A stretch of 64,000 bases of DNA, taken from the NCBI GenBank assembly GCA_046292385.1, contig JBKBRF010000005.1, positions 1 to 64,000 on the forward strand. The letters run 5' to 3'. Under the pieces are notes generated by a model that saw nothing but the letters and a program-made list of their open reading frames with translations, did no database searches and had not been told where the DNA came from. Positions 5,654-15,829 of this stretch are shown here, piece by piece (within the stretch, counting starts at the first letter, position 1; each line of letters starts with the position of its first letter). Source of the stretch: Armatimonadota bacterium (GTDB lineage Bacteria > Armatimonadota > SYMT01). The translations under genes and the position numbers were made by a program.

Positions 5654-6628
5654 CTACTTCTTCTCCAGCACCCAGACGTTCCGGACGTGGACCGGGTTGC
5701 CGTGATTCTGCACCTGGAACGGGCCGGGCCCGGCGGCCTCCGGCCGGCCGCCGGGCGAGGCGTTGGGAAGCTCCACCCGGTCGTGAATGACCACGCCGTT
5801 GTGCTTCACGGTGACGAGCGCGTTCTGCGTCTTCTTGCCGGCGTCGTCGAACCGGGCGGCCTGGAAGTCGATGTCGTAGGTCTGCCAGGCGAGCGGTGGG
5901 AAGCACATGTTCTGGTCCGGCTCCCTGAAGGAGTAGAAGCCGCCGCACTCGTTGTTCTTGCCGTCGAGGCCGAACGAGTCGAGGATCTGCAGCTCGTACC
6001 GGTCCTGCAGGTAGAGCCCGCTGTTGCCGCGGCCCTGGCCGCGCGCCTTCGGCATGAACGGGGTGCGGAATTCGAAGTGGATGGTGAAGTCGCCGAACGC
6101 CTGCTTCGTGCGGGCGCCCGCGTCGAGCAGCCCGTCCGCGGTCATCCGCCCGCCCTGCCACGCGTCGGCGCTCGTGCCGTCGAAGAGCACCACCGCGCCC
6201 TGCGGCGGCTTCGCGCCGAGCGTGAGGCTCTTGCGCTCCACGCGGCGCAGCCGGAAGCTGGCGCCTTCCGCGGTCTGGCCTTCAAAAGTGCCGTCGGAGA
6301 TCGTGCCCTTCCAGCCGCTGCCCTCGAAGCGCGTCGCGGAGCCGTCCGCGCGGCCCTCCACGCGGATCCGGGTCTTCTTGTCCCAGCCGGCGCCGGGAAG
6401 CCCGCCCGGGTGGAATACCGCCTGGAAGGCGCCGTCACCGAGGACGATCACCTGCACGCCCAGGTCCCGATCGCCCGCGCGGCCGGTGTACTCGCCCTGG
6501 ACGCGGTAGTCCGGCCCTGCCTCGGCCACGTTGGTCACGGCGTCCCCGGGCGCCAGGGCCCAGCAGGAGACCGCCCCGCCCGCCAGCACCGCGCCCACGG
6601 CGCCCAGGAACAAGATTCGTCGCCTCAT
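5654..6628 (-). CDS. secreted DUF1080 (3-keto-disaccharide hydrolase family) protein
   Basis: Signal peptide; LFDG, GNSGLYLQDRYELQILDS, WQTYDI, QNHGNPVHVRNVW motifs. Confidence 0.9.
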   Translation of the reverse strand: MRRRILFLGAVGAVLAGGAVSCWALAPGDAVTNVAEAGPDYRVQGEYTGRAGDRDLGVQVIVLGDGAFQAVFHPGGLPGAGWDKKTRIRVEGRADGSATRFEGSGWKGTISDGTFEGQTAEGASFRLRRVERKSLTLGAKPPQGAVVLFDGTSADAWQGGRMTADGLLDAGARTKQAFGDFTIHFEFRTPFMPKARGQGRGNSGLYLQDRYELQILDSFGLDGKNNECGGFYSFREPDQNMCFPPLAWQTYDIDFQAARFDDAGKKTQNALVTVKHNGVVIHDRVELPNASPGGRPEAAGPGPFQVQNHGNPVHVRNVWVLEKK

Positions 6629-6976
6629 TCTACTCCTCACTCCTCTCTCTACCCGGGAGCCGGCAATCACGGAGGAATTGTTGGTCCCAGGTGAGCGCGA
6701 CTCCTGCCGCTGGGCGTGCGTTGCAGGTTGGCAGGTTGCAGGTTCCGAACCCGCCTGTCGGCGGGCCGCCGGCAACACGGCGACCTCGGGTGAACGCCGG
6801 CCCACGGGCTCGCCCTTTCTTCCGGAGCAAGCTCTGTACTACTCACCGTGAGGATCGTGCCGGGAATGCGCAGATTCTGCCGGCGGTATCGCGTGCGTGG
6901 ACCTAGCGAAGCGGGAGGGGCCAGTTTTGAGGCCTGTTTGCTTCTTTTCGAGATGCACCATCTATCCCGCGACCCG

Positions 6977-7552
6977 ACCCCGCGCCCTTGTGCCGGAAGG
7001 CAGCCCTCCCGCGACTTGGCCCTCCGCGGCCTTTTCACACTCCGCTGCGCTCCGTTAGCAGGCCGCTACGGGAGTTCCCGCCGAGAAGCTCTTCCCGCGT
7101 CACTGCGTTGCACCGCCACAAGAGCAGGGTTCACGGGCTACCTTCCGACCCTTCGAGCGACCACCCCTGGACTCAGGGGTGGTCACAACTGGCGCCCTCC
7201 GGGCGCCCCGGGTCCGGGCTCGGTCCGCAGCCGACGAGTGTTGCCGCAACCCGGTGCAGCACGACCGGCTTCGCCCCCGCTAGCGTGGGGACCTGCGGAG
7301 CCCGGAGGCTCTGCCAAAGGCAGGGCCGGAGGGGTCCACTTGTGAATCCCCCGGGCGAGGGGGATTCACTTGAGCCGCCCGGAGCGGCCCGTGAACCGTC
7401 GCCTCGCTGCAGGCGCCGCCTGCGGACGCGGAACGTAACGCGCCGGGGAGCACGCCCGCAGCGCCCGCTAACGCAGGCGAAGCCGGAGCGTGAAAGGGCG
7501 GCGGAGGGCCACCCACGCGGGAGGGCCGCTCCGCGAGGTGAGGGCGGGGGGT
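6977..7552. ncRNA. candidate large structured ncRNA or long imperfect inverted-repeat element, unassigned
   Basis: Continuous long-range complementarity between 6977-7230 and 7293-7552 with opposed internal hairpins; no credible ORF; strand unresolved. Confidence 0.55.
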
Positions 7553-7674
7553 GGACTCCCGGAGCGATGACAGTCTCGCCGAGAGAATCTTTCTCCCGCC
7601 GCCTTGAGTTTGGTTGCGGCATCAGCCACGCTTTGTTCTCTGTGCGCTCCGTGGTGAGTCGGGGTTCGAGACCG

Positions 7675-8316
7675 TCAGGCGAGGGGCGAGACGCGCTCGG
7701 CGAGGAGCAGCGCCTCGGCGATAGCGCGGAGGGAGCGGCCGGTACGCTCCGCCTGGCGGCGGAGGCGCTGGTAGGCTTCCGCCTCCGGGATGCCGTCCCG
7801 GCGCACCAGGATCGCCTTGGCGCGGCGGACCAGGGCTCCCGTTTCCAGGCGGTCGCGTGCCTCCGAAAGCTCCCGCTGCAGCCGCGCGAGCTCCCCGGCG
7901 TGGGCCAGCGTCATCTCGACCGCCGCCAGGAGGTCCGCCGGTCGGGGCGGGCGCTGCAGGAGCGCGGAGGCACCGGCCTCGCAGAGGGCGCCGACCCAAC
8001 GCCGGTCCGGGACGGGAGAGAGCGCCAGCACCGCGGCGCCGGCCGCGCGCACCGCGGCGACCAGGCGCAGCAGCTCCTCGTCCGCGGTGGGGGCACCGCA
8101 GATCACCAGCGCGGGCTGCAGCTTCCGCGTGAGCGCCGGCACGGAATCGAGGCGGTCCTGCTCGCCGGCCAGAGCGGTGCCGCCGTGCCGGAGCGCTTCG
8201 AGCACTCCCTGGCGGACGCTCCCCTCCGGGTCGGCCACCAGGACTGACGAAAGCGCGGCGCTCTCCGACGAAGGAGGCGCCGCCGGCGCACGATGGAGCG
8301 TCTTGAAACGGGTCAT
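7675..8316 (-). CDS. ANTAR-domain regulator with degenerate receiver domain
   Basis: C-terminal LVRRAKAILVRRDGIPEAEAYQRLRRQAERTGRSLRAIAEALL ANTAR signature; REC-like N-terminus VLVADPE; start uncertain. Confidence 0.88.
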   Translation of the reverse strand: MTRFKTLHRAPAAPPSSESAALSSVLVADPEGSVRQGVLEALRHGGTALAGEQDRLDSVPALTRKLQPALVICGAPTADEELLRLVAAVRAAGAAVLALSPVPDRRWVGALCEAGASALLQRPPRPADLLAAVEMTLAHAGELARLQRELSEARDRLETGALVRRAKAILVRRDGIPEAEAYQRLRRQAERTGRSLRAIAEALLLAERVSPLA

Positions 8317-8461
8317 GGTTACCACTTCCGGCGCGCGCATCGGGCCGAAGTACCCGGCCTCCGTGCCTCGCACCTCCGAATGATAACCGTGCCGCGTTTC
8401 ACTTCCGTGTCCGCGCAATGAACGCTGCGTTACGGCCCCGCGGACAAGAAGTAGCTGAACT

Positions 8462-8551
8462 GAGTGGGAGAAAGGGCGAGTGGGGGAGGGGGAGAAGCCA
8501 TTGGAGTGAGGTTCGGATCACCCACTCTCCCTTGCTCCCACTCCCCCACTC
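8462..8551. repeat. GAGTGGGAGA/TCTCCCACTC inverted tandem-repeat element (family A)
   Basis: Purine-rich arm then complementary pyrimidine-rich arm; related copies at about 19257-19466, 50785-50870 and 56449-56605. Confidence 0.7.
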
Positions 8552-8565
8552 CGGTCCTGGGAGAG

Positions 8566-10221
8566 TTAGATCTCCATAATCACCGGCACGACCATCGGGC
8601 GGCGGCCGGTCTTGCGCTGGAGCAGCTTGTTCACGGTGCGGCGGACGTCCTGGCGGACGGCGCTCCAGTCGCGGCCGCTGTCTTCGTCGAGGCCTTCCAG
8701 GAGCGCGGCGACGCTCTCCTTCGCCTCGTCGTAGACATGCTCTTCCTCGGTGGTCAGGATCGCGCCCCGGGAGATGCAGTCCGGGCCGGCGATGATGCGG
8801 CCGGTGGTGGCGTCGACGCTGCAGACGACCACGAAGATGCCGTCCTGGCTCAGGTGCCACCGGTCCCGGAGCACGATGTCCTCGATGCCGGAGGTCCCGC
8901 TGCCGTCCACGATCACGTCGCCGGCCGTGACCCGCTCCGTCACCCGCGCCTTCTCGCCCTGCAGCTCCAGTACGTCGCCGTTTTCCAGCCGCGTGACCGA
9001 GTAGCCCATCGGCTCCGCCATGCGCTGCCAGAGCACCTGGTGGCGGTGCTCGCCGTGGACCGGCACGATGTGCCGCGGCTGCACCAGGTTGGCGAGCATC
9101 TTCAGCTCTTCCTGGTTGCCGTGGCCGGAGACGTGGATGTTCGGGTGGCTCTGCGAGTAGATGACGTTGGCGCCCAGCCGGAACAGGTTGTTGATCACGC
9201 GCCAGACGGTGTCCTCATTGCCCGGGATCGGCGAGGAGGAGAGGATCACGGTGTCACCTTCCTCGATGCGGACCTGGCGGTGGTCCCCCATCGCCATCCG
9301 CGTGAGGGCGGAGAGCGGCTCGCCCTGGCTGCCGGTGGTGATGATCGTCACCTCGTCCGCGGGGTACGAGCCGACGTCGTCGAGGCGGATCATCGTGTCA
9401 TCCCCCACCTCCAGGTAGCCGAGCTCCCGGGAGACGTCGACGTTCTGCTGCATGCTCCGGCCGGCGAGCGCGACCTTGCGGTCGTACCTGCGGGCGATGT
9501 CGATCACCTGCTGCACGCGGGAGATGTTGGAGGCGAAGGTGGCGACGATGACGCGGCCCTCCGCCTCGTGGAAGACGGCGTCGAGCGCGTCGGTCACCAC
9601 CGCCTCGGATTTCACGTAGCCGGGCTTGTCGACGTTGGTCGAGTCGGTCACCAGGGCCAGCACCCCTTCCGCTCCGGCGCGGGCGAAGGCGCCGATGTCG
9701 GCCACGCGACCGTCCACGGGGGTCTGGTCGAACTTGAAGTCGCCGGTGTGGACCACGGTGCCGGCCGGCGTGCGGAGGATCAGGCTCACCGCGTCCGGGA
9801 TGCTGTGGTTGACGTGCACGAACTCCACTTCGAAGTGGCCGATCTTCACCCGCTCGCCCTGCTCCGCCAGGTGCCAGTCGGTATCGGCCCAGAGCCCGTG
9901 CTCGTGCAGCTTCCGCCGGATCAGCCCCAGCGTGAGGCGGGTGGCCCAGATCGGCACCGGGAGCTGCTTCAGCACGTGCGGGAGCGCTCCGATGTGGTCC
10001 TCATGGCCGTGGGTGAGCACGAAGCCGACCACCTGCTCCTTGTGCCCCAGCAGGTAGGAGATGTCCGGGATCAGGAGGTCGATCCCGAGCTGATGGTCTT
10101 CCGGGAACTTCACGCCGCAGTCGACGACCAGGATCTGGTCGCCCACGCGGTAGGCGTACATGTTCTTTCCGATCTCGGTGGCGCCACCGAGCGGAATGAT
10201 CGAGAGCGTTTCGTTTGCCAT
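8566..10221 (-). CDS. rnj: ribonuclease J
   Basis: PLGGATEIGKN, THGHEDHIG, HTGDFKFD, GSQGEP, HVSGH, PVHGE metallo-beta-lactamase/beta-CASP motifs. Confidence 0.97.
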   Translation of the reverse strand: MANETLSIIPLGGATEIGKNMYAYRVGDQILVVDCGVKFPEDHQLGIDLLIPDISYLLGHKEQVVGFVLTHGHEDHIGALPHVLKQLPVPIWATRLTLGLIRRKLHEHGLWADTDWHLAEQGERVKIGHFEVEFVHVNHSIPDAVSLILRTPAGTVVHTGDFKFDQTPVDGRVADIGAFARAGAEGVLALVTDSTNVDKPGYVKSEAVVTDALDAVFHEAEGRVIVATFASNISRVQQVIDIARRYDRKVALAGRSMQQNVDVSRELGYLEVGDDTMIRLDDVGSYPADEVTIITTGSQGEPLSALTRMAMGDHRQVRIEEGDTVILSSSPIPGNEDTVWRVINNLFRLGANVIYSQSHPNIHVSGHGNQEELKMLANLVQPRHIVPVHGEHRHQVLWQRMAEPMGYSVTRLENGDVLELQGEKARVTERVTAGDVIVDGSGTSGIEDIVLRDRWHLSQDGIFVVVCSVDATTGRIIAGPDCISRGAILTTEEEHVYDEAKESVAALLEGLDEDSGRDWSAVRQDVRRTVNKLLQRKTGRRPMVVPVIMEI

Positions 10222-10885
10222 AAAGAGAGAGCTATTCAGTCCTGTTCAGATCGAATCTTGTGGCGCCGCGAAGCCGGTCCTGCGCAGGGGCGCTCGCGCC
10301 GCGAGGCCGGCAGCGGAGATTATGGTGGCGGAGCCAACCTTGCTCATCTTATCCGCTCCACCCACCGGAGTAGGAGCGGCGAGACCGGGGCGGCAGGCCG
10401 GTCAAGAGGCAGGGCACATGGATGCACCGACAAAGCTCACCCGCTACCCTCCCCTCGGACGAACATCGCCTCCGAAGGGAACCGGAAGATCGTCGTGCCT
10501 TCCGAGCAGGCTACCGGGCCGCTGCCTCGTAACGCACCCTGCTCCTCTAGCGCAGACTCGGATCTCGGTTCTCTCCCGGTAGAGAGCGTCCACGCGCCGG
10601 AGACGAGAGCGTGCCCGGGGCAACAACCGCCGAGGCTTTCTGTCAGGGATGGGGCAAAGATTACTGTGAAAGACCTTCTGGACATGGCCCTGACCTAGGT
10701 ATATGTACGGATATTCTTTGTGCGGGAGAAGGATCTCGCCCGCATCCGGTCAAACAGAAGTCCAGCCCGGCAGCCGGTGAGGGCTCCTCTACTATGAAGC
10801 CAGGCGGGCCGACGGCTGGTATGGTCGTGGGGTGGCTCGGCAACCGGCGCCCGCGGCTACTGTGTCTCCAACCGGGAGCGAAACA

Positions 10886-13312
10886 ATGTTGCCCGCGAAC
10901 TATCAATCCGGATCCCAAGGAAACCCCACTCCAAAGGCGCGACACACTCTTGTCTGCGCCATCGCACTCTGGGGCGCGCTGCTCACCAGCGTGGCAACGG
11001 CAGCCGATCCTGCCGGCAGGGGCGGATCGGAACCCGGAAATGCCGGATTCTATTCTCAAACCGCAGCTGCCCCCGCCAAGGCGTCCGACCGTTTCACCCC
11101 CGCCGGTAACGGCATCTCGATCGGGCAGATCAAGCTGTACGACGAACGGGCTCTCCGGGTGATGCTCCGCCAGGCGGAAGCAAGCCTCGCCGCGCTGCGA
11201 GTTTACCAGCAGGACACCTTGACGGGGGCGCTCGGGCGCACGCAAGGGGTTACGGTAGACGAGCGTACCCTGGCATTACAGGTGATGCAGCCGCCACTTG
11301 CGGGCGCGGACGGCGCAGCACCGAACCCAGTGCCGGCTCCGGCTGTCGCACCCAGCACCTTGTCCGCCACAGGTACGGTCGGCATCGGCTCGCAGGACTT
11401 GCTGATGGAGCAAGAGGCCCTGAATTATCAGATCACGAACCTGCGCCTTCTATTGCAGGGCGCCATATCGGATCGAGTGGCGAGAACGACCAGCGGGCCC
11501 AGTCGCACTGAATCAGCACGATTCCAGGCGATTCTCGGGTTCCAGATCAGCATCGATACCCCGGAACGTTATAAGAACCGGGTAGCCGAAGTAGAAGTCA
11601 CCCTGCCCTCTCCGTCGAAGACGGCGCGATCCGAGGGGCAGGACCGGGTGCAGATCGCCAGCCTGGCGGCTCCCCCCATCTCCGAGCGCACTTTGCACGA
11701 TGACTGGTCCTTGGTGTCGTTATTGCCGAAAGAAAAGACCTACAACGTCGCAGCACTCCGGAGGGACGCTACGTCGATCGGCTTCGGCGTGGTAACGAAC
11801 GTAATCAGTCTGGGTGGGCAGGGCGGTCGCGCTCGCGAGACCCTCTATCTGGTCAAGGACACGGACACAGTGGCGTTAGAGCGTTCCACGCCCTCGGGTA
11901 AAGGTGAGCCGCTGAAGTTCGCCTGGCAGTTCCGCCCAACACTCGGGCGTAGTGCCGTGGAGCCGGGCATTCGGCAGGTATATGTCGTCCTATCGATCCC
12001 CGACAAAGGCGAGGATTACCATTATTACGAAACTCTCGCCGACATTCGTACTTATTGGCGAGAGTTCAAACGCAAGACCGGGATTGTAGGTGATGAGATC
12101 ATTTCCTCCGGAGGAGCCGAAACGCAGCGCTCCGTATCGGTACCAGGCATCGCCAAATCCGACGAGTTGCTTGAACCAAGAAAACTGCGCGTCGCCCAGA
12201 TTCAGGATCTCGGAACTGGCCACATCCGGGTCACCGTCGACGGAGAGAACCTGATCCCCGAAACCCGGGTCCTACTTGGCGGCACGGCCTTAAGTCCGGA
12301 CCAGGTGACGTTCCAGGGAGACCGGCGGATCATCTTCGTGGCCCCAAATCCGATGATTGCGTCCGGCGACGTACATCTGGTGGGTCCTTATGGGAAACCC
12401 GTGCGCGTCGAACGTAAGGAAACAGACCTGGCGAGCTTCACAGTCGATCTTCCTGAAGTAACTCAGCTCGACTCGGAACGCTGTGAGCTCGAGATCGGGG
12501 TGCGGGTACCGTCGGGTAAAGTTGACGAGATTATGGACGATTTGATCGTCGATCTTGGCCGCGGGAATCCCTACGGCTTCCGTGACCGTCCCATACGCCG
12601 CAGATCCGCTGGGAAGGATGGCTTGCCCGACATCTTGCTCACCCTGCACGTCCCGACCACTGTGCTCCGCTCTGTCGACGAGATTCGAGTGCTCCGACCG
12701 CTCTCGCCGACAACACGGGTGGCTACGGAAAAGCTCAACATGGGGCCGATCTTCTCTGTCTCCCGGGTTACGACTCGCCCCTCCAGCACAGGAGGAAAGT
12801 ACTTCTGGGTTGACGGGGTCAACTTCACCGAATGGATGTACTATCAGGGCAAGAAGGAACCGATCAAGGCTACGACCGAGCTTCCAAAGGGAGAGGGCGA
12901 GACTAAACCGCGCCTTACCCTCTTGCACAAGGGGCAACTGCTCCTGTTCCTTCCCGCCGAGGAGCACAAAGGAATCGATCAACTGGTGTTCATCCAGGAG
13001 AAGGATAAGAAGAGAAGCACCGTAATCGCGCCGCTCGTGCCGCCCCCGGGGCCACTTCCGACCGTCAACGCCCTGCCGGCGGTCCGCGTCAATGAAAGCA
13101 AAGAGATCGAGGTTCGTGGCGAGCATCTGGACTCGATTGCCGCGGTGAAGTTCGAAAACCTCGATCTGGTTTTCCAGATTGCTCCCGATGGGAAGTCGAT
13201 GAAGGTGCGAATTCCTTCGGAGTTGACCAAGACGGCCTCACCTCGCCGGCAGATCGACTTCATCACGAAGGACGGCAAGAAGGTCTCACGTGACCTGGAA
13301 GTCAACTCGTAG
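10886..13312 (+). CDS. large secreted hypothetical protein with probable IPT/TIG-like beta-sandwich domains
   Basis: Signal-like hydrophobic stretch; VTVDGENL, WVDGVNF, IEVRGEHL motifs typical of IPT/TIG; visibly lower GC than flanks. Confidence 0.75.
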   Translation: MLPANYQSGSQGNPTPKARHTLVCAIALWGALLTSVATAADPAGRGGSEPGNAGFYSQTAAAPAKASDRFTPAGNGISIGQIKLYDERALRVMLRQAEASLAALRVYQQDTLTGALGRTQGVTVDERTLALQVMQPPLAGADGAAPNPVPAPAVAPSTLSATGTVGIGSQDLLMEQEALNYQITNLRLLLQGAISDRVARTTSGPSRTESARFQAILGFQISIDTPERYKNRVAEVEVTLPSPSKTARSEGQDRVQIASLAAPPISERTLHDDWSLVSLLPKEKTYNVAALRRDATSIGFGVVTNVISLGGQGGRARETLYLVKDTDTVALERSTPSGKGEPLKFAWQFRPTLGRSAVEPGIRQVYVVLSIPDKGEDYHYYETLADIRTYWREFKRKTGIVGDEIISSGGAETQRSVSVPGIAKSDELLEPRKLRVAQIQDLGTGHIRVTVDGENLIPETRVLLGGTALSPDQVTFQGDRRIIFVAPNPMIASGDVHLVGPYGKPVRVERKETDLASFTVDLPEVTQLDSERCELEIGVRVPSGKVDEIMDDLIVDLGRGNPYGFRDRPIRRRSAGKDGLPDILLTLHVPTTVLRSVDEIRVLRPLSPTTRVATEKLNMGPIFSVSRVTTRPSSTGGKYFWVDGVNFTEWMYYQGKKEPIKATTELPKGEGETKPRLTLLHKGQLLLFLPAEEHKGIDQLVFIQEKDKKRSTVIAPLVPPPGPLPTVNALPAVRVNESKEIEVRGEHLDSIAAVKFENLDLVFQIAPDGKSMKVRIPSELTKTASPRRQIDFITKDGKKVSRDLEVNS

Positions 13313-13455
13313 CGATCCAGGAATAGAACCGGAGATTGCGATCCGGCCAGAGCGTGCCGAAGTCTCGTGCGGCGGCGTGGACGTGAGTCTCCAGCACAGC
13401 AGTAGGCGGGAAGGCGAGGTGGGGGAAGCTCCTCGTCTTCCTGCCACTGCGCCAG

Positions 13456-14754
13456 CTACAGTTCCCAGCCCTTGCGGTACGGCTTGCGGATGACGTGGGC
13501 TACCTCCGGCGCGTTCGTCGCCTTCAGGTTCTTGGCGTCCCACTCCACCTTCTTGCCGTTGGCCCAGACTGCCAGGTTGCCCAGCAGCACCGTCTCGGTC
13601 ATCGGGCTGGCGTAGCCCGGGAAGTTGCTCATCGCCGGTTCCCCACCGCGGATGGCGCGGACCCACTCCTCGAAGTGGCCGGGCGACTGCGGATAGCTCA
13701 CCTCCACATCCCGGACGCCGCCGAGCAGGACGCGGTTGTTGCCGGAGTCGCCGGGGGAGTAGAGCTTCCCCTTCTCCCCGATCACGAGCGCCCCGCTCGA
13801 CTCCTGCTTCTGCCCCTCGAGGAGGTCGGCGGACGGCATCTTGCCGCCGTCGTACCAGAAGAGCGTGAGCGCGGGGCGAGCCTCGGTGGCCGGGAACTCG
13901 TAGCCGATCACCGACCACTTAGGGTAGCTGTCCTGGTTGTGGCCGGAGGTCTCCGCCTGGACGGAGATGGGATGTCGCAGGTCGAGCGCCATGAACGGCA
14001 TGTTCATCGTGTGGCACGCCATGTCGCCCAGCGCGCCGGTGCCGAAGTCCCACCAGCCGCGCCAGCCGAAGGTGTGGTACCCCTTCCCGTACGGCCGCTC
14101 CGGCGCCGGGCCCAGCCACTCGTCCCAGTGCACCGTCGTCGGCGGGGTCTCCGCCTGCGGGCGCGGCACGCCCTGCTCCCAGATCGGGCGGTTCGTCCAG
14201 ACGTGCACCTCTCGCACCGGGCCCAGGATGCCCGCGCGGATGAGGGCGGCGTTCTTACGCAGGTCGCCGCTCGCGGTGCCCTGGTTGCCCATCTGGGTGG
14301 CGACCTTGTGCTGGCGAGCGAGTTCGCCAAGGGTGCGGGCCTCGTAGATGTCGTGGGTGAGCGGCTTCTGGCAGAAGCAGTGCTTGCCCATCTTCATCGC
14401 CATCGCCGCGGCGGGCGCGTGGGTGTGGTCCGGCGTGGAGACGGTCACCGCGTCGATGCTCTTGCCCATCTCCTCCAGCATCTTGCGGAAGTCGGTGTAC
14501 TTCCTGGCGTTCGGGTACTTCTGCGCGGCGCGGTTGAGGATGTTCTCATCCACGTCGCAGATCGCCACCAGGTTGCCGCTGCGCGCCGCGTCCGCGGTGT
14601 CGCTCTCGCCTTTGCCGCCGACGCCGATCGCGGCAAAGTTGATCTTCTCGTTGGCCGACTTCGCCTGCGCCCACGCCCCCTGCTCCGCGGCCAGGATCCC
14701 CAGCCCCGCGGCAGTCGTGGTCTTCAGGAAGTCGCGCCGGCTCCGGTTCGACAT
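13456..14754 (-). CDS. Tat-exported Gfo/Idh/MocA oxidoreductase
   Basis: SRRDFLK twin-arginine motif; IGVGGKG; TPDHTH; CQKPL; GDMACH. Confidence 0.95.
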   Translation of the reverse strand: MSNRSRRDFLKTTTAAGLGILAAEQGAWAQAKSANEKINFAAIGVGGKGESDTADAARSGNLVAICDVDENILNRAAQKYPNARKYTDFRKMLEEMGKSIDAVTVSTPDHTHAPAAAMAMKMGKHCFCQKPLTHDIYEARTLGELARQHKVATQMGNQGTASGDLRKNAALIRAGILGPVREVHVWTNRPIWEQGVPRPQAETPPTTVHWDEWLGPAPERPYGKGYHTFGWRGWWDFGTGALGDMACHTMNMPFMALDLRHPISVQAETSGHNQDSYPKWSVIGYEFPATEARPALTLFWYDGGKMPSADLLEGQKQESSGALVIGEKGKLYSPGDSGNNRVLLGGVRDVEVSYPQSPGHFEEWVRAIRGGEPAMSNFPGYASPMTETVLLGNLAVWANGKKVEWDAKNLKATNAPEVAHVIRKPYRKGWEL

Positions 14755-14842
14755 GTTCTCTACTCCTTCCGGCGAGGGAGACGCCAGTGGGAGAGCCTCG
14801 CCACTACCAGGATGGAAACCACGCGTACTGTGAGGTTTCGGG

Positions 14843-15829
14843 TTATCGGGTGCCCGGCGTCACTCCCGGAAGCGCGTAGACGTCTCCCGGCAGCGGCTCC
14901 TGGAGCTCTCCGACCTTCCGAAAGCGGCGCTCTTGCGGGAGGCGGGAATTCAGTATCGGAAAGAGCTGCCGCGCCGGTCCCGCGCCGGGCGACTCCGGTG
15001 CGACTTCCGTGCCGGTGAGCCGGCCTACCAGCTCCGAGAGCAGCTCCGGCGTGAGATCGTCGTGGATGTAGACGAGCTGCGCGTCCGCCATCAGCACCGG
15101 CCCGGCGGAATCGCCGCCGCCCGGCAGCCGCTTCCGCAGCGTCGTGTTGAGCGACCGCATCGCCTGTTCGAACTGCACTTTGCGGCTCTGCGCCACCACT
15201 TCCGCGGGGTAGCTCCTCCCCTGCGCCTCCGCCATCGCCAGGATCTCCGCCGCCGTCGGGCCGCCGCGGCTGCTGCGCCAGAGCATCTCGTCCGCGTAGT
15301 CGCGCTGGACCAGCTCCTGCACCCGCCGCGTGTCGAGCGGCGGAATCTCGCCCAGCGGGCGGTCGCGCACCAGGCGGTGGAACAGCTCCGCCGCGCTGAG
15401 ACCGGGCAGCCGGACCTTCCGCCGCCCGGGAGGGTCTTCCTGTCCGATCCCCTCTTTGGACGTCGTATAGGTCACGCTCGTCCCGTCCGCGTAGTGCGTG
15501 TCGAAGTCGAGAATCGTGCCGACCAGCGGCGCCTCGTAGATCGCCGCGTAGACCCGCTCCTCGTGGTGAAAGAGAAGCTGCAGGGTCATGCCGGGGATCT
15601 CGAGCACCCGGAAGTGCGGCCCTTCCTCGAAGTCGAGCCCGCGCAGCTCCCCCAGGAGCGCTTCCACCCGTCCCGCGTGACGCCAGGCGGGACGGGACAG
15701 CGGCTGGAGCCGGATCTCCGCCGGCGCGCCGAGGCGAGAGAAGCGCACCAGGATCCGGGCCATGCTCAGGAGGTCGAACCGGACCGCCAGCCACCCGAAG
15801 CCTACCAGCGCAATGATGAGCCAGACCAT
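14843..15829 (-). CDS. hypothetical membrane-anchored protein
   Basis: N-terminal hydrophobic helix MVWLIIALVGFGWLAV; protein-like composition. Confidence 0.7.
   Translation of the reverse strand: MVWLIIALVGFGWLAVRFDLLSMARILVRFSRLGAPAEIRLQPLSRPAWRHAGRVEALLGELRGLDFEEGPHFRVLEIPGMTLQLLFHHEERVYAAIYEAPLVGTILDFDTHYADGTSVTYTTSKEGIGQEDPPGRRKVRLPGLSAAELFHRLVRDRPLGEIPPLDTRRVQELVQRDYADEMLWRSSRGGPTAAEILAMAEAQGRSYPAEVVAQSRKVQFEQAMRSLNTTLRKRLPGGGDSAGPVLMADAQLVYIHDDLTPELLSELVGRLTGTEVAPESPGAGPARQLFPILNSRLPQERRFRKVGELQEPLPGDVYALPGVTPGTR

Follow-up and report, generated by a model that had tools for sequence, protein, structure and literature searches.

An apparent 575-base rod in an Armatimonadota genome is two inverted copies of a dispersed repeat, each with its own preserved fold

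The window, that is, the whole 64,000-nucleotide stretch of DNA analysed here, contains a gap flanked by genes encoding a PF06439 protein (formerly DUF1080) and an ANTAR protein, both assigned by Pfam. The initial annotation saw no credible open reading frame in this gap and described it as a rod of about 575 nt pairing end to end. The three reading frames that span the gap (6988-8247 on the + strand, 6848-7345 on the + strand, and 7173-7622 on the - strand) have no Pfam match, in agreement with that view. The end-to-end pairing of 6970-7560 is also genuine, since an inverted-repeat search recovered a co-linear series of repeats joining the two arms: 7000-7013 with 7516-7529 (93% complementary), 7017-7044 with 7484-7511 (28 nt, 89%), 7050-7063 with 7463-7476 (86%), 7128-7138 with 7387-7397 (100%), and 7176-7202 with 7326-7352 (78%), in addition to the inverted repeat 7196-7215 with 7289-7308 (85%). 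Folding of both strands against shuffled controls placed this region far beyond chance: the + strand reached -369.8 kcal/mol (z -8.79), which none of 100 shuffles equalled, and the - strand -386.8 kcal/mol (z -8.80). The same search also gave helices lying within single arms (6994-7006 with 7135-7147, and 7375-7390 with 7523-7538), and the two perfect 11-bp hairpins that had been noticed at 7159-7184 and 7342-7369 are present in the sequence. The apparent 575-base rod is in fact made of two back-to-back, opposite copies of a repeat of about 290 bases, each with its own preserved fold, and is part of a longer composite element with the following features:

6834..7635, no strand: whole composite element, 802 bp, with sharp homology limits against about 11 other copies and both end motifs present
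6834..6952, - strand: left outer segment, comprising the left end, a subterminal hairpin, and the 3' tail of the A-type unit
6953..7227, - strand: A-type unit, whose folding strand is - (nhmmer match 6968-7212; member L026 of alignment A1)
6994..7147, - strand: P1 long-range helix of the A-type unit, 6994-7006 with 7135-7147 (inverted repeat I18, 13 nt, 92% complementary)
7159..7184, - strand: P2 hairpin of the A-type unit, 11 bp, read from the sequence, with double changes at 5 of 10 pairs across A1
7228..7285, no strand: spacer separating the 5' ends of the two units, previously taken for a multibranch cap closing the rod
7286..7577, + strand: B-type unit, whose folding strand is + (nhmmer match 7301-7562; member L027 of A1)
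7342..7369, + strand: P2 hairpin of the B-type unit, 11 bp, read from the sequence, at the same alignment position as 7159-7184
7375..7538, + strand: P1 long-range helix of the B-type unit, 7375-7390 with 7523-7538 (inverted repeat I9, 16 nt, 88% complementary), identified also by P1 covariation
7578..7635, + strand: right outer segment; 7 nt before the right end lies its subterminal hairpin (7611-7628), flagged as terminator-like

The composite thus places one A-type and one B-type unit with 5' end towards 5' end and encloses them between a fixed left end and a fixed right end, both provided with a subterminal hairpin; on the left, as read from the sequence, 6851-6856 pairs with 6873-6878 with one G-T. 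Folded alone, the A-type unit (6953..7227) reaches -151.5 kcal/mol (z -4.10) and the B-type unit (7286..7577) -177.6 kcal/mol (z -5.01). Conservation of the spacer is limited to composite copies (73-82%). The outer segments have a wider distribution: the 140-nt left segment was found attached to about 20 units, its first ~60 nt also heading solo elements of 401 bp, and the 67-nt right segment to about 27 units. They always occur next to units and never around a longer ORF-bearing stretch.

In the genome from which the window comes (hereafter G000), nhmmer detected 146 matches to the ~260-290-nt unit, with a median length of 254.5 nt. Eighty-two of them are solo and the others include 29 doublets in the '+-' arrangement, against one '-+', one '--', and one '++'. 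The gaps between the nhmmer matches of a doublet range from 34 to 88 nt, mostly ~82, and 21 of 26 typed doublets are heterotypic (A+B), four being ambiguous and one A+A. Fragments are rare (5, 1, 0, and 8 segment matches outside known units), and 131 of the 146 units overlap no called gene by more than 60 nt, according to crude GC3-based gene calls. Orientation relative to the flanking genes is even (36/35/33/31, plus 11 units at contig edges), which led us to reject a cis-regulatory role, and orientation relative to local GC skew shows only a weak, non-significant trend (51 versus 33, p 0.08). We did not find any recurrent neighbour gene around the units of G000, of the two related genomes described below (G005 and G006), or of metagenome contigs; two tandem arrangements with 1.1-1.3-kb gaps (on contigs C37 and C40) were considered as possible carriers of a protein partner and contain ordinary genes. 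Pairwise identity among copies has a median of 66%, and the nearest-neighbour median is 83.5%. Such identity is low for a recently active element, so that the copies do not look recent.

Despite this divergence, the fold of the unit is well defined: a 5' hairpin, the 11-bp hairpin P2, and a 15-bp long-range helix, P1, closing an inner domain of ~135 nt that contains further helices. RNAalifold applied to 40 diverse units (alignment A1) predicted 54 pairs, 21 of them with double changes, and double changes occur at 30 pairs in alignment A3. Paired cells amount to 96.4%, compared with 85.2% in shuffled alignments (0 of 500 as high) and 38-47% in slid ones, and double-change cells to 238, compared with 79 in shuffles. 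A structure-blind mutual-information scan of 125 units recovered the same helices, with up to five pair types per position. P1 is the most strongly covarying helix of the family (double changes at 11 of its 15 pairs); P2 covaries across the 125 units as well, so that the compensatory change suspected from the comparison of the two 11-bp hairpins proved right. The 39 core pairs are kept at a level of at least 79% in every unit, with a median of 97%. The same constraint is visible between nearest-neighbour copies, which differ at 9.3% of positions in paired columns versus 16.8% in unpaired ones and in which 213 of the 235 pairs changed on both sides still pair, against 50 +/- 10 in a re-paired null. 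The folding strand is the G-rich one. It was assigned by counting G-U against A-C combinations (+ for the right arm, - for the left arm): in the '+' orientation of the unit A-C is far commoner than G-T, and G-U pairs are conserved (for example, in 40 of 40 and 16 of 16). Rfam 15 returned for 6400-8000 of the window L31-Firmicutes as its best match, at 21.1 bits versus a gathering score of 33.3 (E 0.14), and for 20 further units eight scattered weak matches with no recurrent family. The family is therefore absent from Rfam, yet its members keep a large multi-helix fold, with compensation pervasive even between the closest copies. The structured RNA suspected at this locus survives in altered form, as a unit of ~290 nt with a well-supported fold rather than as a 575-nt rod.

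What holds for each arm does not hold for the two arms together. In 26 doublets the median identity between partner arms is 0.624, compared with 0.657 for random pairs of units, and mutual pairing of the partner arms is not under selection. Because two diverged inverted copies of one sequence are necessarily complementary, the rod is a by-product of their arrangement. Among the readings offered by the initial annotation, a pair of inverted paralogous RNAs comes nearest, the G-U and A-C counts placing the fold of the right arm on the + strand and that of the left arm on the - strand.

The limits of the elements were examined in older and younger subfamilies of G000, the ends of solo A-type units being less well defined. 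Twenty elements carry both end motifs, including the window copy, which starts with CTGTAC and ends with GCTTTG (GCTGTG in the family consensus). They fall into lengths of 401-417 bp (6), 549-642 bp (3), 790-822 bp (10), and 889 bp (1). In these 20 elements there are no terminal inverted repeats, as the left CTGTAC and the right GCTGTG are not reverse complements, and their flanks contain no matching direct repeats; the CTGT present at both ends could have arisen as a 4-bp duplication at a specific target or could belong to the element itself. In 15 of the 20, a T immediately precedes the left end. A ~45-nt repeat gives a direct view of the insertion sites, since 10 of its 15 copies are intact and the other five adjoin the end of an element, at a TCTGTG motif; insertion thus occurs at TCTGTG motifs. 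The CTGT common to both ends is compatible with site-specific recombination and with HUH cleavage alike. Older units do not have the left and right ends of the 20 elements. A miniature inverted-repeat element (MITE) had been named as an outcome that would overturn the interpretation as an undescribed RNA; many dispersed genomic copies were found, but clear target-site duplications were not.

A covariance model built from the units was used to search other genomes. Only two of the 60 searched, both from the same family as G000, contain unit matches (at least 13 in G005 and at least 8 in G006, compared with 146 in G000), so that copy number varies widely, and no unit was found in G001-G004. In metagenomes, 14 of 25 loci yielded 16 matches, whose paired cells amount to 93.4% versus 73.0% when shuffled. 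The fold is thus common to three genera of one bacterial family and to environmental relatives, and certain G-U pairs and single-stranded blocks are invariant in all three genera and in the metagenomes. A motif scan of species-representative genomes gave 19 stretches, six of which were already confirmed G005 regions; the covariance model was applied to the other 13, and all seven loci from other taxa failed it and were discarded as chance matches. The positions of the units are not conserved between genera: none of eight proteins flanking units in G005 or G006 and having a match in G000 has a unit within 2 kb there, and the PfkB and NIF3 genes that flank a doublet in G005 lie 154 nt apart without a unit in G000, as an empty orthologous site. 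Four units flank two CRISPR arrays in G005; in G000, no unit lies within 12 kb of either of its two arrays, and we consider this adjacency incidental. No RNA run containing window positions 5700-8400 was found. Two soil runs that are labelled metatranscriptomic, and are probably DNA, cover small shares (0.08 and 0.07) of these positions, and a few read-sized soil contigs align to 6566-6854 and 7309-7628 with at most one difference, which indicates the presence of the same or a very close strain only and says nothing about transcription.

These data suggest to us, with slightly better than even confidence, that 6834-7635 is one copy of a non-autonomous, mobile, dispersed repeat whose single-stranded fold is under selection. 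Movement, present or past, would be of DNA by way of a single-stranded intermediate and would depend on an enzyme acting in trans, most likely an HUH transposase (Y1, of the IS200/IS605 or RAYT type) encoded elsewhere in the genome, and only copies that keep the fold would propagate or persist. The points against this reading are that no transposase is linked to the units, that the ends leave the mechanism unsettled, that so large a fold is unusual in a transposase substrate, and that the divergence of the copies does not suggest recent activity. The three genomes with the repeat have Y1_Tnp genes (five in G000, among them C51:25920-26261, C22:55627-55965, and three longer frames, nine in G005, and six in G006), as do family members without it (one in G001, four in G002, and one in G004). 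A covariance-model search found no unit beside the five Y1 or the two IS110 genes of G000, the best score (15.4 bits, E 0.0046) lying near a weak Y1-like frame on contig C83, and no cognate TnpA with matching ends was found among the Y1 loci of this genome. The flanks of Y1/RAYT genes contain hairpins that differ from the units; next to the Y1 gene on contig C51, for instance, lies another short hairpin repeat. A retroelement (retron, group II intron, or SINE-like) was likewise rejected: no reverse transcriptase (PF00078) was matched in G000, whose completeness is 98.45%, and 3'-end fragments are not in excess (5 versus 8).

Elements of the IS200/IS605 group have no terminal inverted repeats or evident target duplication, carry subterminal hairpins, insert at short motifs, and depend on strand-specific single-stranded structure. 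The repeat resembles a derivative of such elements in its subterminal hairpin at each end (6851-6878 and 7611-7628), the lack of terminal inverted repeats and of any evident target duplication, the insertion at a short motif, and a single-stranded structure specific to one strand; it differs in that no cognate TnpA or TnpB was found, the same CTGT is present at both ends, and the interior is a large conserved fold and not a gene remnant. It shares with classical MITEs its small size, the absence of an ORF, the many dispersed intergenic copies, and the long hairpins possible upon transcription. However, its ends are not mutual inverted repeats, no target-site duplication is evident, no related autonomous element with the same ends was found, and the inverted symmetry is internal, resulting from two diverged whole units and entirely missing from solo units. 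Flanking stem-loops of IS200/IS605 elements are mentioned in PMC3184786, which also describes bcr1 of the Bacillus cereus group as a transcribed repeat of ~155 bp flanked by 5-bp direct repeats. Like bcr1 (as described there), our family is a dispersed, non-coding repeat restricted to a genus or family, with non-conserved positions and with compensatory changes that keep a fold at the RNA level (PMC3184786); unlike it, the unit is ~290 nt long and includes a long-range helix as well as an inner domain, clear direct repeats are absent, and doublets have a fixed orientation. REPINs, according to PMC3337134 and PMC3116915, are non-autonomous, mobilised by RAYT, present in tens to hundreds of copies, and persistent in lineages for a long time, and they occur as singlets and as inverted doublets of fixed orientation with a short spacer. 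The 29 '+-' doublets against one '-+', together with 82 solo units, recall this organisation. REP units are, however, ~20-40 nt long (PMC3733652) and the two arms of a REPIN jointly make its hairpin, whereas the ~260-290-nt arms studied here each fold on themselves and are not preferentially complementary, and units flank no Y1 gene at the five Y1 loci of G000. We know of few bacterial interspersed repeats that combine a conserved structure of ~290 nt, ~146 nearly all full-length copies, heterotypic doublets of fixed orientation, ends without inverted repeats, and no linked protein.

The main rival to the mobile repeat is that the ~146 copies are paralogous genes for non-coding RNAs, or RNA modules, in the service of the host or of an RNA-protein machine. 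Transcripts of the individual ~290-nt units would then function as folded RNAs, and duplication or hitch-hiking with mobile DNA would account for the spread of the copies. To our knowledge, a ~250-nt multi-helix fold with invariant loops and G-U pairs goes far beyond any known substrate of a single-strand transposase in complexity, and a fold this elaborate is typical of functional RNA. The covariation in A1 and A3, the G-U pairs and single-stranded blocks invariant across genera and metagenomes, the mainly compensated differences between nearest-neighbour copies, the near-universal full length, and the clear marking of one strand all speak for such a role. By contrast, solo units have no conserved promoter-like sequence upstream, the window copy has no sigma-70-like site (a consensus that may not apply to this organism), and doublet spacers of 34-40 nt are too short for two divergent upstream promoters. 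The even orientation, the lack of recurrent neighbours, the shifting positions, the uneven copy number with no unit found in G001-G004, and, in young copies, the sharp transposon-like ends and preferred insertion motif also argue against it. On balance, we regard host RNA genes as unlikely, though as a serious alternative.

More speculatively, and in our opinion improbably, the ~290-nt unit may represent a new structured-RNA class and, by itself, provide the activity of a mobile element that encodes no protein, either as a guide- or bridge-like RNA recruiting a host recombinase to TCTGTG or as a catalytic or priming RNA or single-stranded DNA. Its guide or bridge variant, in which the unit would steer a recombinase or nuclease encoded elsewhere to TCTGTG and to the element's own ends, is in itself a still fainter prospect. 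The CTGT core at both ends of the 20 elements and insertion at TCTGTG are the expected trace of recombination at a shared core; furthermore, the element is almost entirely a structured RNA-like module, read in the direction from left end to right end, and G000 has two IS110-family genes. However, G005 has the family without any IS110 match (97% completeness). In addition, no unit lies near the two IS110 genes of G000, a difference from IS110 bridge RNAs, and P1, the hypervariable segment, is a compensated helix and not a free loop; the ends are missing from older units. Nor does the unit compare well with the omega-RNA of TnpB or IscB, as RNA-guided nuclease domains were not found in G000 (PF07282 and PF01385) or, for PF07282, in G005, G006, and G001.

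A single rod RNA of ~575 nt, perhaps viroid-like or circular, or a DNA cruciform acting through arm pairing, as first proposed, is already largely refuted and scarcely credible: the region pairs end to end on both strands, is somewhat more stable as a rod than as units apart, and recurs in one relative orientation in 29 doublets, but its arms are independent members of the 146-match family that are no more complementary than random ones, 82 matches keep the fold while solo, covariation backs helices within and not between arms, the G-U evidence assigns the arms to opposite strands, and the Rfam search detected neither a self-cleaving ribozyme nor another family.

The earlier picture of the locus is thereby corrected, the rod being an artefact of two inverted repeat copies, and the covariance model offers a means of annotating these regions and of keeping doublets from being taken for large RNAs. 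If the units were host RNAs, they would constitute a new multi-copy class of non-coding RNA. Should they instead be the active part of a protein-less element, this genome would hold a self-sustaining population of ~146 folded replicators whose fold is selected at the level of the element. For the mobile repeat that we favour, a need for the fold in propagation would make the family a tractable system in which to study how selection works on non-coding replicators within a genome.

Between the PF06439 (former DUF1080) gene and the ANTAR gene lie the co-linear inverted repeats, from about 6977 to 7552, that the initial annotation had described. Its two perfect 11-bp hairpins are present in the sequence, none of the three ORFs tested there had a Pfam match, in agreement with a gap lacking any credible ORF, and the end-to-end pairing of 6970-7560 exceeds chance on either strand: the single-strand fold has free energies of -369.8 kcal/mol (+ strand, z -8.79) and -386.8 kcal/mol (- strand, z -8.80), equalled by none of 100 shuffles in either case. 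An equal z-score on both strands suggests an inverted duplication at the DNA level rather than a strand-specific RNA, and when the left arm is aligned to the reverse-complemented right arm, the two prove to be diverged copies of one sequence. The feature is a composite copy (6834-7635, 802 bp) of a structured repeat family that is non-autonomous and undescribed; what had been read as a single ~575-nt rod-like RNA is a genuine sequence feature but consists of two repeat units, arranged as follows.

Features of the window copy
6851-6856 with 6873-6878: left subterminal hairpin
6953-7227, - strand: left unit, A-type
6994-7006 with 7135-7147: long-range helix P1 of the left unit (from the inverted-repeat listing)
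7286-7577, + strand: right unit, B-type
7375-7390 with 7523-7538: long-range helix P1 of the right unit (from the inverted-repeat listing)
7611-7628: right subterminal hairpin

In G000, the genome that contains the window (91 contigs totalling 7.04 Mb, completeness 98.45%), about ten stretches match the region over its full length at 80-87% identity, and dozens more match its left or right half only. Three nhmmer rounds yielded 146 matches to a 264-position model, with a median length of 254.5 nt, of which 82 are solo; fragments of units are rare. Twenty-nine doublets are oriented '+-', their two units lying 34-88 nt apart (238 nt in one doublet), and the '-+', '--', and '++' arrangements occur once each, the two tandem cases merely flanking ordinary genes. 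Doublets usually combine an A-type and a B-type unit (21 of 26; four ambiguous, one A+A). Full-length units (n = 125) have a median pairwise identity of 66%, rising to 83.5% between nearest neighbours. The two arms of a doublet, by comparison, share a median identity of 0.624 (26 doublets with both arms full length) versus 0.657 for random unit pairs. Since identity within doublets is not above that of random pairs, the complementarity along the rod reflects mere family resemblance; the arms are not under selection for pairing with one another, and it is very improbable that the rod is one molecule. Near C3:165047, C8:71160, and C14:104876, one or more extra tandem copies of the last ~40 nt of the unit are present.

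The single unit, in turn, has a conserved fold. A structure-blind mutual-information scan detected Watson-Crick covarying column pairs in a 15-bp long-range helix (P1), an 11-bp hairpin (P2), several inner helices, and a pair joining both ends of the core. RNAalifold applied to 40 diverse G000 units aligned in one orientation predicted 54 pairs, of which 21 show changes in both partners, and its main helices agree with the structure-blind scan. Standard pairs occupy 96.4% of 2151 cells, compared with 85.2% in shuffles (none of 500 as high) and with 38-47% when partners were slid, a control against which a structure predicted from the same alignment is favoured. Double-change cells (238 versus 79 in shuffles) and the covariation score (0.347 versus 0.149) are likewise elevated. 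Folded alone, the window units reach -177.6 kcal/mol (right, z -5.01) and -151.5 kcal/mol (left, z -4.10). Neither the window region nor 20 other units came near threshold for any Rfam 15 family.

Among 104 distinct nearest-neighbour unit pairs, differences affect 9.3% of paired columns and 16.8% of unpaired core columns. Base pairs differing on both sides number 235, of which 213 are still paired (50 +/- 10 with re-paired columns), and of the 269 with one-sided differences, 132 remain paired in either copy. No unit retains less than 79% of the 39 core pairs (median 97%). The fold has been under selection recently and across the units, and these kept pairs and compensated changes rule out that the units are decaying relics: either every copy is under selection, or folded copies alone seed new ones and old ones vanish. 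In an arbitrary unit orientation, the non-Watson-Crick cells of the covarying helices are mostly A-C and almost never G-T, which implies G-U pairing on the opposite, G-rich strand. Several G-U pairs never vary among the 40 aligned units or the 16 aligned metagenome matches. Therefore, the folding strand is + for the right unit and - for the left unit, their 5' ends pointing at each other across the spacer, and these opposite strands account for the balance of G-T and A-C mismatches reported for the rod.

Of 61 genomes searched with a covariance model of the unit, three gave matches: G000 and two members of the same family from other genera (at least 13 matches in G005 and at least 8 in G006, among the 30 candidates scored per genome). 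There was no match in the four other family members searched or in the 54 genomes from outside the family. Scanning one genome per species for a conserved motif gave 19 stretches, the model confirming only those in records corresponding to G005 and G006; all seven loci from other taxa failed it. Proteins flanking the units carry planctomycete-type domains (e.g. PSD3, PSCyt1, and DUF1501). The same motif occurs in 25 stretches of metagenome contigs, 14 of which hold 16 model matches; there the fold is kept (93.4% of cells paired versus 73.0% shuffled, double changes in 30 of 54 pairs), in an alignment that, being fitted to the model, leans towards the structure. Three head-to-tail units in a row, an arrangement not seen in G000, occur in a metagenome contig (L131, 1-694) and at G006:C47:3660-4978.

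Mobility of the family is suggested by sharp element ends, an insertion motif, and positions that differ between genera. Twenty elements, including the window copy, start with CTGTAC and finish with GCTGTG, with CTGT at either end. Six elements of 401-417 bp consist of the left end, a single B-type unit, and the right end; ten of 790-822 bp have in addition an inverted A-type unit with its tail after the left end; and the others measure 549-642 bp (three) or 889 bp (one). These 20 elements have neither inverted repeats between their ends nor direct repeats in their flanks. A ~45-nt repeat with several TCTGTG-like motifs followed by a run of A is found at 15 places in G000 (e.g. C15:103560, C2:68306, and C52:19882); ten are intact and five abut an element end exactly at TCTGTG (three left, two right). 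The genera do not share unit positions: in G005 a doublet occupies the 1133-nt gap between the PfkB and NIF3 genes, which in G000 lie 154 nt apart without a unit, and of the eight G005 or G006 unit-flanking proteins that have a G000 match, none is within 2 kb of a unit in that genome. The units sit between genes (against crude gene calls, 131 of 146 show an overlap of at most 60 nt), adjoin varied housekeeping genes, and show no orientation preference against neighbouring genes (36/35/33/31).

In the window copy, the right-end hairpin and the T-rich run behind it (7611-7636) look like a terminator. Most other copies lack the run, so here it may end a transcript that leaves the B-type unit in the direction of the ANTAR gene, which is convergent. 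In G005 (L091, C3:824000-843000), four units (6659-7704 and 12332-12889) lie beside two CRISPR arrays of 61-nt period (8110-10460 and 12985-14847) with a cas1 gene between them; no unit occurs within 12 kb of the G000 CRISPR-like arrays (C28:80940-81964 and C58:23081-24110). A second, unrelated G000 repeat family (~270 nt, ~25-nt terminal inverted repeats, often at contig ends) is present at C6:73995-75293 and more than 50 other places (e.g. C35:70137-70399); part of it is similar to the unit around its 5' hairpin, and one copy is interrupted by an IS110-family element.

The absence of inverted ends and of duplication, the subterminal hairpins, the motif-directed target, and the one-strand fold favour a route of HUH type through single-stranded DNA, by which the elements would move. 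The CTGT core common to both ends would fit site-specific recombination just as well. We found no TnpB domain or reverse transcriptase in G000, which has five Y1_Tnp matches and two IS110 genes; no unit lies beside these loci, where the best model score (15.4 bits) falls close to a frame on C83 that is weakly Y1-like. On both sides of the Y1 gene at C51:25920-26261, a short G+C-rich hairpin occurs in inverted copies (L066, 1423-1449 and 1972-1996). This arrangement is RAYT-like and has a REP of its own, separate from the present family, and another Y1 gene is flanked by unrelated hairpins. No IS110 match was detected in G005, a carrier of the family. Y1 genes occur in all five relatives tested, and their higher numbers in the two carriers (9 and 6, versus 1, 4, and 1 in the others) are at best a weak hint.

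On balance, we lean towards a mobile element with a selected single-stranded fold. A multi-copy non-coding RNA family is a less probable candidate, to which the size and conservation of the fold lend weight, as they look more like those of a functional RNA than of any known transposase substrate; a guide or bridge-type RNA is improbable. A limited, keyword-based search retrieved no published description of the family, which does not imply its absence from print. Among described repeats, bcr1 of the Bacillus cereus group comes closest; it is dispersed and transcribed, and its RNA fold is kept by compensatory changes (PMC3184786). For the population structure of doublets and singlets, the closest analogue is the REPINs.
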